From: Candidatus Saccharimonadota bacterium
GTDB lineage: Bacteria > Patescibacteriota > Gracilibacteria > BD1-5 > UBA2023
DNA length: 32,000 nt
Assembly (NCBI GenBank): GCA_046350815.1
Contig: JAXLZO010000001.1
Coordinates: 690,001-722,000 of the forward strand
Direction: 5' to 3'
Shown piece after piece: positions 1 through 32,000 of the stretch (position 1 is the stretch's first letter; the number at the start of each line of letters is the position of its first letter). The position numbers and the translations under genes are program-made. Under the pieces are notes generated by a model. The model was not told where the DNA came from and made no database searches. It saw only the letters and a list, made by a program, of their open reading frames with translations.

Positions 1-1
1 A

Positions 2-526
2 CTCTTGAATGGACAGTTCTTCGGGAATTATTATGCACTCCAGCCAGGTTATACTTCTCGGCTTGCTTTTGGTGTATTTCAAGATGGTGATGTCCTTTCA
101 CTTGGATATGGTCGCATCGAGGCATATCGCAAGAAGATACTGACAATCTCATCAAAATGAGCTCGTATTCAATGATACAAGCTCTCAAATGCCTATGCTC
201 TCAAATGAGAAACAGGCTCACTCGCGATCGTCGGTCTTCATCCACTCGCGAATAAAGATTCACGATCAGAAAGTAATCTTGGTCGTGTCTATGTTGGTGT
301 TGGTGGTGCGAAGATTCGTGGCGGATGATCTTCAAAGATATACTTTCTCGTTGCGACTGGCATAGAGGAACGAGAAGCTTTTGCTATCCTTCGCAAAGCA
401 TGAGCTCGTGAGACAATGATGCTCGATGGGGGATGATCGACGCAGATCTGGGCAGCCGGACAGTCTCGTATATCCTCATCTCGTCCTATTCCGCACGCAA
501 TAGCTCTCTTCTCAGCTAATCGTTAG
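2..526 (+). CDS. C-terminal fragment of a phosphodiester-glycosidase-like (DUF2233/NAGPA-type) protein; the 5' end lies outside the window
   Basis: Frame 2 is open from the window edge to TAG 524-526 when the 6 in-frame TGA are read as Gly. The product ends ...AGARETMMLDGGGSTQIWAAGQSR. MLDGGGS is the motif I associate with this family. The family call is from memory only. Confidence 0.45.
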
Positions 527-2009
527 AAGAATTTTTCATGGATTCTTCGTACTGCTTCATATATTTTTCAAAGATGGCGGAAATTTGATATTCCCGGGTT
601 GTTATCTTTTGATGCTTACCTGTTTCTATTCTCTCCTTTAAGTTGTTTCTCTCATCCTCGGATGCAATCCAAAGAAAGAAAAATATTTTTTCGTAGGCTT
701 TCTCATTCTCCATCTGTTTATCAGCAGTCATATTACGAAGATGAAGATACCAGTTTTTTGATTTTTCTTGTTTTGTTAAAAGAGTCTCAAAAAGTCCAAT
801 CAATCATCAAATTCTTTGAAAATCTCACTTATTTACATGAAGTTTTCGGTCGAGATGAGATGCACTCTTCCCTCCAAGAGTATGGGTATAAGAATTATTT
901 ATACTCGCTAGCTCCCGCAAGGATAATCTTGTTGTATTTTTGTCTTTTATTTCTGATCCTATGTATTGAATTTTTGTGGGCATATCCATATCTTTGTCAT
1001 AATTTCCACCGTATAATTCATCATAATATATAGTATCCACATCTCAGATAGATGCTTTCCCCCAATCAATTATATATGGTGTGTACTCTAAATTTTCTGT
1101 TTGTTGAAACATGATATTTCGAGGATTGCCCGATAAATCCCTGTGATGTAGTGATATTTTTTGTAAATCCTCTATAAAGAGCCGAATTTTTGATCGAATT
1201 TGATATTTTTGTACATCTGTGAAAAGTTCGATTTTTGAAAGATATTTTTTATAGATACCTTCAATAGCTGGGTAAACTTTTCTTCATCCGTCAAAATAAT
1301 ACATTCACGGATTCTCATTAATAATACCTTGTTTGCAAAGTTCCAGTAGTATAAGATTGACTTGATCTTCCGCATGTGAGTCATTTTCAAAATGTATATT
1401 TCCATCCCGGTTTATAAGATATGAGAAAATGGTTTCAAAATTTGGCAGGTCCCGTAATAAGAACTGCTCTGCAATTTTCTCCAGTGTCATACAATAGAGG
1501 GTTTTTCCATTGACGCGCTCCATTACAAGATAGCCATCTATATTATCTTCGTCATTCTTTTGATTAAAGGAATCTATGAGATAAGGTACCTTTATGCCAG
1601 AAATACTTTCTCTGGATACATCGTAAGCAAGCTGATGCATACTTTCCTCATTGTCCTTAGAGCTTCCTGGGCGTTTCTTTGCGACGACAACCATCATACC
1701 ATTGAGATCGATGTAATAAATCTCTCATTCTTGGCCACGAGTAACAGGAGTCGTATCGGCAATTTGGGAGAGAACTTGCTTGCGAAGAAGTATTTTGAAT
1801 GCTTCTTCTTGATCTGCTCATGTAAGTACATGTTTCAATACATCCATCTTCTCTTGAGAAGAGAGTTCATTTAAAAGTGCTCCAACTTTCGCACCAATGC
1901 CTTGAATCGTATCTTGTGAACGAGCAGAAACTTCTTGATCGAAGTTTGCTTGTACTTTTGTTAATGGAGGGGTAGTACGAGGGTGATGTGGGATCGATAT
2001 GTTTGGCAT
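516..2009 (-). CDS. protein-kinase-like fold protein (497 aa), function unknown
   Basis: Standard-code pieces 1818-2009, 1305-1697, 825-1040 and 516-803 share one frame and are joined by 8 TGA. I checked codon by codon that no TAA/TAG lies between ATG 2009 and TAG 516-518. It has a catalytic-loop-like LHHRDLSGNPRNIMF and a downstream IIDWGKA. Confidence 0.6.
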
Positions 2010-2429
2010 AATATTACGTATTTGCTGTTCATACTAACATAGTTTTTTATTTTTGTAAATAAAAAACGCTTTTATTTGGATTTATCATTATTGAAGAGAG
2101 AGCGTAAAAATTATTTGTAACTATAGATTTATATCGTATAGTATACGCGTGTCCAAATACCGACACATGATGTTATGTTTTCATTCCCTGGGCAATTCGG
2201 ACTCTCTGGCATGATGATATTGTCCATGAAAATGGTGCAATAGAATCACTGATAGTAATATCTTCAGTAGCCGTTCTCTTTGGGTGGACTTGAGAATACC
2301 AGCCTAGGACTTCAGGACGAAGTCACCTCCTACGCAGGATAACCCAAAAATAGTCGACCTGCAACGACCATTTGATCCCTCAATGCATTGCAGCGAGGGG
2401 TTTTGAATAAAAATGCAAGGAGAATAAAT

Positions 2430-2747
2430 ATGATAATCAATCCAAGAATTTTGAATGTAGAGTTCATTCAGAGCCCGATTTTTTATCAACTGTCTCATGA
2501 TATACCTATTGCCTTTCTCGCAGGATATATTTTCTATGCTCAGATTGAAGTAGAGTATCATGAAAAAAGCAAAGTAACGGTTATGATTGATCGACAAGTG
2601 ATTGTTCGTGCGAATGTAAAGTCAATTCGACGTGGACGCCGTAAAATAAGAAAGATGGTTCGGAGATTCGAATGTTATCTTTATATGCAACATAAACCAG
2701 CTACAGACCCAGATTTTGTAAGGAAAATTTGTGGTTTCCCACACTAA
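2430..2747 (+). CDS. small basic hypothetical protein (105 aa)
   Basis: AAGGAG at 2417-2422 lies 7 nt before ATG 2430. The ORF runs to TAA 2745-2747 and is followed directly by a strong hairpin. The C-terminus is Arg/Lys-rich (RRGRRKIRKMVRR). No family recognised. Confidence 0.55.
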   Translation: MIINPRILNVEFIQSPIFYQLSHDIPIAFLAGYIFYAQIEVEYHEKSKVTVMIDRQVIVRANVKSIRRGRRKIRKMVRRFECYLYMQHKPATDPDFVRKICGFPH

Positions 2748-2749
2748 CG

Positions 2750-2771
2750 AAAGCCCCCATTTGGGGGCTTT
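2750..2771. terminator. bidirectional intrinsic terminator shared by convergent genes
   Basis: AAAGCCCCCA / TGGGGGCTTT inverted repeat with an A-run on one side and a T-run on the other. The nth stop codon (2770-2772) lies in its right arm. Confidence 0.7.
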
Positions 2772-29798: not shown

Positions 29799-29892
29799 AT
29801 CTCTTATTGTCATTAGTATTCACTTAATTTCGCTTTGGAAGAACCATTTTTCTTCGTATAATCTCAGTAATTGTTTGGATTAACACATCCAT

Positions 29893-30246
29893 ATGTTGCT
29901 CACACCTCTTCAGATATTTTTCGTAGTATCGGGAACTATCATTCTTATCATTGCTTTGGATGTAGCACGCCGAGAGCGCTTTAATGCGCTTCATTTTCTG
30001 GTGTTTATTGGTGTCGGTCTTTGATTGCTTGTTTTTACTCTCTTTCCAAAAATTCTTGATCTTATCGGGCACATGGTTGGACTTCAGCGATGAGCTGATG
30101 CACTTGTGTATGCGGCGATTATATTTTTGATGTATTTTTCGTTACTATTACTCAGAAAAATCGAAGCAACCAATGCTGTATTAACGATGCTTACTCGGGA
30201 AATTGCTCTCTCAAAATTTAAAAAACATAACGATGAAAAAAGATAA
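29893..30246 (+). CDS. DUF2304-family small membrane protein (117 aa)
   Basis: MLLTPLQIFFVVSGTIILIIALDVARRERFNALHFLVFIGVGL-G-LLVFTLFPKILDLIGHMVGLQR-G-ADALVYAAIIFLMYF..LTREIAL. It is absent from the track because of 2 TGA. This family typically precedes a GT2 gene. Confidence 0.7.
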
Positions 30247-30940
30247 ATTTCTTTTCATAGTTCGCGCATACAATGAGGTATCTCGTGTCTGAATAGTGAT
30301 CCAGGCACTCTTAGATGCATGATTTTCTGAAATTTGTGTTGTGAACGATGGTTCAAAAGATGAAACACAAAAAGTGCTGAATTCATTTTGAAATAAAATT
30401 TATTCTTTAAGGCATCCTATAAATCGAGGTGCCGGAGCAGCGTTGGAGACAGGTTTTGAGTTTGCCCGTAGATATTCGGATGATTATAATTGGGAATACA
30501 TTGTTACTTTCGATGCGGATGGTCAACATGATATTGCCGATATTCATTCCTTTTTTCAAATATTACATAAAAATCCAGGAACACAGGTTATATTTTGATC
30601 TCGATTTATTCAAAAAACTCGATCAAATGTTCCTCTGTTACGAAGAATAGTATTGTATCTTGGAATGATATTTACCAAATGTATTTCTCAGGTACATCTA
30701 ACAGATGCTCATAATGGTTATCGTCTTATCAAAATAGAGGTTGTAAATAGTATTCGCCTCACCATGGATGGCATGGAATATGCAAGTGAACTCATAGATC
30801 AAATCAATAAACTTTGATTCCATATTCATGAAGTACCTGTTAATATTCACTATGATAGCTATACTCTTGGGAAGGGGCAGAGACATGGTTGAATGTTTCG
30901 GATAGCATTTAAAATGGTAATGAATAAATTTTTTCTCTAG
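30233..30940 (+). CDS. family-2 glycosyltransferase (polyprenyl-phosphate sugar transferase-like)
   Basis: FLFIVRAYNE, CVVNDGSKDET, TFDADGQHD, F-G-SRF, LTDAHNGYRL. Verified row by row to TAG 30938-30940. It overlaps the DUF2304 gene by 14 nt. Confidence 0.85.
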
Positions 30941-30947
30941 ATTGTTT

Positions 30948-31946
30948 ATGGACCAGAAAACGCTCCTTATTACTGGTGGTGCCGGGTATATCTGATCCCA
31001 TGCAGTTGTTGCATTTGAACAGGCAGGATATAAAATAGTAATTCTCGATAACTTCTTAAACTCTTCCAACGATAATTTAATCGGTATAAAAAAAATACTT
31101 GGTTATTCTCCTGATTTTTATGAGTGTGATATTTGAGATCAAGATGAATTGAACAAGATTTTTCGAAAATATCATTTTGATGGGGTGATTCATTTTGCAG
31201 GATTGAAGGCAGTAGGAGAGAGTTGTCAGAAACCACATCTCTATCATCAGAATAATATTTGAGGAAGTCTTGTGCTTTTCGGAGTTATGGAGCAATTTGG
31301 TGTAAAAAAGATTATATTCTCCTCATCTGCAACTGTGTATAGTTCGGATAATACCCCCCCCTTAACGGAGGATATGCCTCTCGCAACAACCAATCCTTAT
31401 GGAACTACCAAGTTAGTGCTGGAGAAAATCCTTGAAGATTATGCAAAGCAATGAGACTGGTTTGTTATGAGTCTGCGCTACTTCAATCCTATCTGAGCAC
31501 ACTCTTCATGATATATCGGAGAAATACCTCGTGGAATTCCGAATAATCTTCTGCCTTTCATTACGGATGTTGCCTGTGGCAAACGTGAAAAGGTGATGGT
31601 ATTTGGTGATGATTATCCTACGTCTGATGGAACTGGCGTTCGAGATTATATTGATGTGTGTGACTTGGTTGATGCTCATTTGCAAGCATATCAAGCTCTT
31701 TCTCAAGGTTTACGTGTATATAATATTGGTACAGGAAGTGGGACAAGCGTCCTCGAGATGATTCATATAGTGAGTGACATAACTGGAAAACAGATTCCCT
31801 ATGAAATATCCGAACGAAGACCTGGAGATATTGCTACTGTGTTTTGTGATCCAACTCTTGCTCAGAAGGAGTTAGGGTTTACTGCTAAAGTATCCATTCG
31901 CGAGAGCATTAAGAAGAGTTGGAATTTTTCTCGTGCTTTAAAATAA
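30948..31946 (+). CDS. galE: UDP-glucose 4-epimerase
   Basis: [17 protein letters not shown] (Rossmann GxxGxxG; the third Gly is TGA 30993-30995), [28 protein letters not shown] (YxxxK), FNPI-G-AHSS-G-YIGE. 7 TGA. 333 codons ending in TAA. Confidence 0.95.
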
Positions 31947-32000
31947 ATTCTTATAAAACTTATTTATCTTTTGCTTTCATGGAACAATATACTGATTATT

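Follow-up and report, generated by a model that had tools for sequence, protein, structure and literature searches.

UGA almost certainly encodes glycine in a 32-kb chromosomal window of a Candidatus Gracilibacteria bacterium

Which amino acid, if any, does TGA specify in the DNA examined here, a stretch of 32,000 nucleotides from contig JAXLZO010000001.1 (positions 690,001 to 722,000, forward strand; hereafter the window)? Genes for widely conserved proteins in the window, among them UDP-glucose 4-epimerase (GalE), endonuclease III (Nth), and both subunits of a type III restriction-modification (R-M) system (Mod and Res), are interrupted by in-frame TGA when read with the standard bacterial code. 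A first-pass annotation, made from the sequence alone, had proposed that TGA is decoded as glycine throughout (NCBI translation table 25). Four independent lines of evidence, namely comparison with homologue columns, a deep alignment of Mod, substitutions between strains, and codon composition, uphold that proposal. We regard it as nearly certain that the window is chromosomal DNA of Candidatus Gracilibacteria (BD1-5/GN02), which belongs to the candidate phyla radiation (CPR), and that it uses table 25, in which UGA is glycine.

Under the standard code, 119 open reading frames (ORFs) in the window reach 60 aa or more, and none is longer than 364 aa. With TGA read as sense, open frames that reach 100 aa or more sum to 28,920 aa instead of 8,741 aa, and the longest extends to 932 aa. 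When TAG and TAA were opened in turn in the same way, the summed open frames in the window hardly grew. Reconstruction with TGA read-through gave 30 confident coding sequences (CDS) that cover 86% of the window; 28 of them contain TGA (140 in 9,176 codons), and they terminate at TAA (22) or TAG (8). Two smaller CDS (7012–7287 and 29893–30246) are secured by exact matches to NCBI proteins, which brings the total to 32 CDS, 30 of them with in-frame TGA (143 triplets), closed by 24 TAA and 8 TAG. No internal in-frame TAA or TAG was found across these 32 CDS (approximately 9,400 codons). Pfam matches to Nth, M23, Mod, ResIII, TatD, RluD, ApbE, NTP_transferase, RmlD, RmlC, and GT2 are full length and span the TGAs in a single frame, and alignments of GalE, RmlC, the response regulator, RluD, Nth, the histidine kinase, and RmlD to PDB entries reach within a few residues of both termini. 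The first-pass annotation had called the standard-code ORF track an artefact and had described full-length products in one frame after read-through; both statements fit these results, long ORFs being restored by TGA read-through alone. It had also reported 36 CDS, 30 with in-frame TGA and all ending in TAA or TAG. The stop types and the count of TGA-containing CDS stand, but only 32 CDS can be justified here, and the numbering of the deposited proteins implies 34 plus probably one pseudogene.

The TGAs are not sequencing errors, because positions 22838 to 32000 (9.2 kb) are base-identical in an independent Logan assembly and the same window proteins were found again in several samples. SRR26348420 is one sample that carries the organism; a search of the literature for five sample accessions gave no result. 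The positions that it listed for TGA codons on conserved glycines were exact: galE 30993, nth 3052–3054, rluD 18947, rmlC 26749–26751, res 14321, the histidine kinase 27287–27289 and 27281–27283, and the response regulator 28734–28736. So was its hand count for the M23 peptidase, in which 8 of 24 glycines are TGA and the remaining 16 are GGN.

To which residue these codons correspond was read from standard-code homologues. TGA was masked as X, ten proteins were aligned, and the best homologue of each was scored. Nine were compared with homologues of solved structure; for Res, a search among solved structures gave no detectable homologue, and a metagenomic homologue on a contig without in-frame TGA was therefore used. 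Glycine occupied the TGA columns in 3 of 6 cases for GalE, 2 of 5 for RmlC, 2 of 4 for the response regulator, 3 of 9 for ApbE, 2 of 4 for RluD, 1 of 1 for Nth, 5 of 7 for the histidine kinase, 0 of 6 for Mod, 2 of 2 for RmlD, and 2 of 7 for Res. Over all ten proteins, 22 of 51 TGA columns are glycine and none is tryptophan (binomial p = 3e-12 against a glycine background of 7.5%). The TGAs that lie inside invariant motifs all align to glycine: GGAGYI-G-SH in GalE, LP-G-VG in Nth, RP-G-LVHRLD in RluD, D-x-G-x-G in the histidine kinase, G-ADDY and K-G-FGY in the response regulator, R-G-FAHGF in RmlC, DPRT-G in ApbE, and NE-G-WD in Res. In Res, the TGA at 14321 (ALNE-G-WD) and codon 852 are both glycine in the TGA-free homologue. 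The claim that TGA falls on invariant glycines is thus borne out, and the inspection of homologue columns that had been suggested alongside it returned an enrichment for glycine.

Because homologues in the PDB were of no help for Mod, a deep search was run with this protein and the best 120 matches were aligned. Glycine is the commonest residue at seven of the nine Mod TGA columns (for example, 105/116, 107/120, and 108/120). Eleven relatives with "W" at TGA columns, which are close relatives with automatically called TGA, were then removed. Among the 109 homologues left, glycine accounts for a fraction of 0.65 at TGA columns, against 0.60 where the window has GGN and 0.02 at all other columns, and columns where the window has TGG are 71% tryptophan. 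The log-likelihood for the residue encoded by TGA is −5.6 for glycine and −28.9 for asparagine, the next residue.

Substitutions between strains point the same way. Variants of the response regulator, GalE, RmlD, the nucleotidyltransferase, and the histidine kinase were taken from the protein clusters that contain the window proteins; they come from other samples and are mostly >90% identical. Their automatic translations read TGA as Trp, so that a "W" in them can mean that TGA was kept. In 34 comparisons at TGA columns, 29 variants have "W" (TGA kept), 5 have true glycine, and none has anything else. The commonest replacement of a window glycine in the variants is "W" (4 cases), and genuine TGG tryptophans are invariable across the clusters. 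A diverged strain contig (L014) allowed codons to be compared directly: 192 of 1,771 aligned codons differ, and of 28 TGAs, 22 are conserved, 3 are exchanged between TGA and GGA, 2 between TGA and CGA, and 1 changes from TGA to GAA. No exchange of TGA with TGG, TAA, or TAG was seen between this contig and the window. Because TGA swaps mainly with GGA and never with TGG, TAA, or TAG, it behaves in evolution as a sense codon with the same meaning as GGA. Codon composition agrees with this. GGN alone makes up 5.0% of codons in the window CDS, a low glycine content, and GGN plus TGA gives a normal 6.5%; tryptophan stands at 0.8% from TGG and would be an abnormal 2.3% if TGA were added. TGA thus accounts for approximately 1.5% of all codons and approximately 23% of the glycine codons, and in the histidine kinase it exceeds GGN (15 against 11).

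Read-through of TGA by itself cannot separate table 25 from table 4, in which UGA is tryptophan and which is used by Mycoplasmatales (Mycoplasma/Spiroplasma) and several insect endosymbionts. Table 4 turns the same stop codon into sense and leaves the same fragmented table-11 ORFs, and tryptophan-translated versions of the window proteins exist among automatic gene calls. What differs is the amino acid, and here the homologue columns decide: not one of the 51 carries tryptophan, the TGAs in invariant motifs are glycine throughout, and the Mod homologues that mostly keep tryptophan at TGG columns mostly have glycine at TGA columns. Conserved tryptophan is encoded by TGG only, the variants show no interchange of TGA with TGG, and the tryptophan content that table 4 demands is the abnormal value given above. 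We therefore consider tryptophan extremely unlikely. Even less credence, practically none, is due to the view that the TGAs are genuine stops that mark pseudogenes, sequencing or assembly errors, selenocysteine sites, or programmed read-through. Genes are indeed interrupted under table 11, and isolated interruptions of this kind do occur, as in a standard-code Bacillus GalE with TGA at the same glycine codon. However, 143 in-frame TGAs stand against zero TAA or TAG, independent assemblies from several samples give the identical sequence, and most TGAs are conserved in the diverged strain (22 of 28). Because TGA alone interrupts the frames and different samples reproduce the sequence, pseudogenes and errors are excluded. 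Selenocysteine recoding shares with the window the use of UGA as sense inside ORFs; it is confined to a few sites in a genome, depends on a SECIS (selenocysteine insertion sequence) element, and falls on Cys or Sec columns. In the window, UGA is far too dense for selenocysteine, its homologue columns are Gly rather than Cys or Sec, and no SECIS or other Rfam element was found at threshold.

Glycine at UGA could also be accompanied by a second change, in which CGA, CGG, or both have become tryptophan codons. Shulgina and Eddy reported such reassignments, of CGA and CGG in Absconditabacteria and of CGG in some Gracilibacteria (PMC8629427), and the window shares UGA = Gly with this extended code. 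It differs in that CGA and CGG are common and lie on invariant arginine positions. CGA is the most used codon of the arginine family in the window (147 per 10,000) and CGG is not rare either (51 per 10,000). Both codons fall on invariant arginines, namely R232 and R290 of GalE, DE-R-G of RmlC, THQI-R of RluD, and DTH..R of Nth, and CGG encodes the last arginine of the Fic motif GNGRxG-R and the arginine of GR-R-xIGxE in Mod. Because CGA and CGG remain arginine, the additional reassignment of the Absconditabacteria type is absent; a code that goes beyond table 25 in this way is very unlikely.

The glycine-translated products proved to be exact matches to ten deposited proteins, NCBI MFO0763904, 906, 910, 921, 927, 929, 931, 932, 934, and 936. 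Each bears a name of the form "MAG: ... [Candidatus Gracilibacteria bacterium]" and a locus tag beginning U0518_, and all ten are on a contig of 1,283,673 bp. Their order agrees with our gene map, and the run from 903 to 936 implies 34 protein-coding genes. The label supports membership of the organism in Gracilibacteria and is in keeping with the earlier suggestion that the contig comes from a CPR lineage with TGA = Gly. Because the glycine translations equal deposited proteins, the window is an already annotated instance of table 25. A phage origin was also considered; it is ruled out by the housekeeping and cell-envelope genes on the 1.28-Mb contig.

The public collection holds these genes in three versions: with glycine (NCBI), full length with tryptophan substituted, and as fragments. 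The tryptophan-substituted versions are automatic calls from Logan and ENA, and the one for the histidine kinase, for example, has 15 wrong W. The fragments (76, 127, 173, and 249 aa) were apparently split at TGAs and occur in ENA and Logan, with a few in NCBI; eleven public TatD versions of 249 aa begin after the TGA. Mistranslated entries share 90% clusters with correct ones for the response regulator, GalE, RmlD, TatD, and the histidine kinase. The first-pass annotation had warned that annotation with table 11 or table 4 would be badly wrong, and these entries are what it foresaw. In practice, any ORF track made for this window with table 11 or table 4 is in error, and both alignments of protein families and searches for homologues can be contaminated by mistranslated entries.

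Several observations weigh against the assignment to table 25 or limit what can be drawn from it. Approximately half of the TGA columns are at variable or gapped sites where the homologues have no glycine; we read these columns as uninformative rather than contradictory. The zero tryptophan fraction at the TGA columns of Mod was partly built in by the removal of the 11 homologues with "W". The NCBI label and translation come from a submitter and a pipeline, not from an experiment, and for this organism UGA = Gly rests on sequence rather than on proteomics. Scans for tRNA genes found none in the window, and the flanks that were fetched gave one tRNA-Leu call and no tRNA(UCA). Neither prfA nor prfB lies inside the 32-kb window, and no Rfam family reached its gathering threshold there. 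Lastly, the GalE motif GGAGYI-TGA-xH was searched for in GTDB species representatives, and no further recoded genome came up: five of the six matches were out-of-frame chance occurrences. The sixth, in Bacillus sp. MRMR6 (NZ_MSLS01000014.1; L011 86–112), is a genuine GalE with an in-frame TGA at the glycine codon of GGAGYI-G-SH, close to a contig end; a pseudogene or an error in sequencing is the probable explanation.

Under table 25, UGA is an ordinary glycine codon and termination is left to UAA and UAG only. From the literature on the lineage, a dedicated tRNA-Gly with anticodon UCA would be expected to decode UGA, release factor 2 (RF2), which recognizes UGA, would have been lost, and release factor 1 (RF1) would serve both UAA and UAG. 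The identity elements of tRNA-Gly(UCA) are G1:C72, C2:G71, G3:C70, and U73. Glycine at UGA has been known in Gracilibacteria since 2013 and has since been reconfirmed by genome-wide screens. In Gracilibacteria and Absconditabacteria, UGA = Gly is established together with tRNA-Gly(UCA) and the lack of RF2, and two "Gracilibacteria" genomes without the reassignment have RF2 and lack tRNA-Gly(UCA) (PMC8629427). Proteomic support for UGA = Gly comes from a BD1-5 bacterium (PMC4032931). The statement in the first-pass annotation that this code had already been reported for the two groups agrees with both papers. The window resembles the published cases in having abundant in-frame UGA in conserved genes on glycine columns, UAA and UAG as sole stops, and Gracilibacteria labels. 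Its G+C fraction (0.36 to 0.46) lies inside the reported range of 0.21 to 0.53 (PMC8629427), and no difference between the window and table 25 was detected. Nothing here is biologically new: the code and the lineage are known, and the genome is already correctly translated in NCBI. The gene map obtained with TGA read as sense is given in Table 1.

Table 1. Coding sequences of the window with TGA read as a sense codon (coordinates are those of the window).
Product	Coordinates	Strand	In-frame TGA	Remarks
NAGPA-like (phosphodiester glycosidase), 3' part	2..526	+	6	Cut by window start; stop TAG
Kinase-like hypothetical protein (weak APH match)	516..2009	-	8	Stop TAG; exact NCBI MFO0763904.1, U0518_03545
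Endonuclease III (Nth)	2770..3408	-	1	TGA at 3052-3054, invariant Gly of LP-G-VG; NCBI MFO0763906.1
M23 peptidase	3453..4100	-	8	With 16 GGN, 24 Gly
GNAT-like protein (weak match)	4111..5178	-	4	
IS1595/ISXO2-like transposase fragment	5489..5965	+	2	C-terminal half of DDE domain only; probably pseudogene
ACT_7-domain protein	6104..6739	+	1	
CsoR-like metal-sensitive transcriptional regulator	7012..7287	+	1	Stop TAA; NCBI MFO0763910.1
DUF6962 membrane protein	7263..7748	+	0	
DUF305 protein	7758..8396	+	1	N-terminus Cys-rich
Hypothetical protein	8415..9293	-	6	
Fic-domain protein	9414..10448	+	3	Final Arg of GNGRxGR is CGG
Type III R-M methyltransferase (Mod)	11344..13035	+	9	
Type III restriction subunit (Res)	13016..15796	+	7	
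Hypothetical membrane-anchored protein	16323..17087	-	3	
Hypothetical protein	17105..17560	-	1	
TatD-family hydrolase	17698..18546	+	1	NCBI MFO0763921.1
Pseudouridine synthase RluD	18533..19534	+	4	18947 is the Gly of RP-G-LVHRLD
Hypothetical coiled-coil protein	19555..20781	-	5	
Hypothetical protein with internal duplication	20950..22152	+	6	
ApbE (FAD:protein FMN transferase)	22177..22980	-	10	Codons 95, 173, 218 on conserved Gly
Putative lipoprotein	22982..23539	-	0	Served to locate public contigs
Sugar-phosphate nucleotidyltransferase	23617..24516	+	6	True Gly codons in variants at two TGA columns; NCBI MFO0763927.1
Hypothetical protein	24523..25635	+	9	Stop TAG
dTDP-4-dehydrorhamnose reductase (RmlD)	25638..26522	-	2	Both Gly in best PDB homologue; NCBI MFO0763929.1
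dTDP-4-dehydrorhamnose 3,5-epimerase (RmlC)	26533..27096	-	5	26749-26751 is the Gly of VPR-G-FAHGF
Sensor histidine kinase	27104..28351	-	15	11 GGN; both G1-box Gly (D-T-G-V-G) are TGA; NCBI MFO0763931.1
OmpR-type response regulator	28353..29015	-	4	Invariant Gly codons 94 (G-ADDY), 212 (K-G-FGY); NCBI MFO0763932.1
Hypothetical secreted or membrane protein	29139..29813	-	1	
DUF2304 membrane protein	29893..30246	+	2	Stop TAA; NCBI MFO0763934.1
Family-2 glycosyltransferase	30233..30940	+	6	Stop TAG
UDP-glucose 4-epimerase (GalE)	30948..31946	+	6	Invariant Gly at 30993 (GGAGYI-G-SH), codons 183 and 188; NCBI MFO0763936.1

Some features of the map lie apart from the question of the code. The interval 7012–8396 is a metal-response cluster made up of the CsoR-like repressor, the DUF6962 membrane protein, and the DUF305 protein, the last with a very Cys-rich, metallothionein-like N-terminus. 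Because the NCBI accession numbering has no slot for it, the transposase fragment is probably annotated as a pseudogene. The ORF at 20950–22152 contains a perfect direct repeat of 195 nt (21140–21334 and 21569–21763, spaced 429 nt), which doubles a segment of 65 aa with one TGA codon in each copy. It results either from a duplication that is very recent or from the assembly.

Strains differ in structure over the left third of the window, which is a variable island. The strain variant L014 (Logan SRR22388166), whose positions 1–16256 were compared with window positions 1–13035, is without the block 3453–6739 that holds the M23 peptidase, the GNAT-like protein, the insertion sequence fragment, and the ACT_7 protein. 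Between Fic and Mod it has three other genes, including a defence-type OLD-like TOPRIM/AAA ATPase. At 14038–14121 of the same contig, ARAGORN calls a tRNA-Leu(CAG) within a stretch where the automatic gene caller placed an ORF of 470 aa on the other strand; either call could be false.

The mod and res genes (11344–15796) form a GC-rich island with a G+C fraction of 0.46, against approximately 0.39 in the rest of the window, and TGA makes up a somewhat lower share of their glycine codons (16/91 against 124/507 elsewhere). The nearest relatives of Mod, at 68 to 72% identity, also have TGA at shared columns. One recoded relative, at approximately 70% identity, lies on a contig (L013, 1–6331) on which Mod has 9 TGA and five genes total 30 in-frame TGA. 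A second contig (L012, 1–5834; G+C 0.32) encodes a Mod that is 69% identical and has no in-frame TGA in approximately 1,900 codons, of which 96 are GGN; the Res encoded there shares only 33% identity with that of the window. Because relatives of Mod occur on both recoded and TGA-free contigs, the module straddles the code boundary. An old horizontal transfer of the R-M module is plausible but unproven, and we suggest tentatively, with more doubt than confidence, that the island may be the trace of genes passing between organisms with different genetic codes.

What the window adds to the picture of table 25 in Gracilibacteria is modest: a genome without the change of CGA or CGG to tryptophan, a TGA share of approximately a quarter of the glycine codons, and one R-M module with relatives across the code boundary. 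If that module came from a donor with the standard code, its 16 TGA glycine codons arose after the transfer. In that case, mod and res would no longer be expressible outside the recoded lineage.

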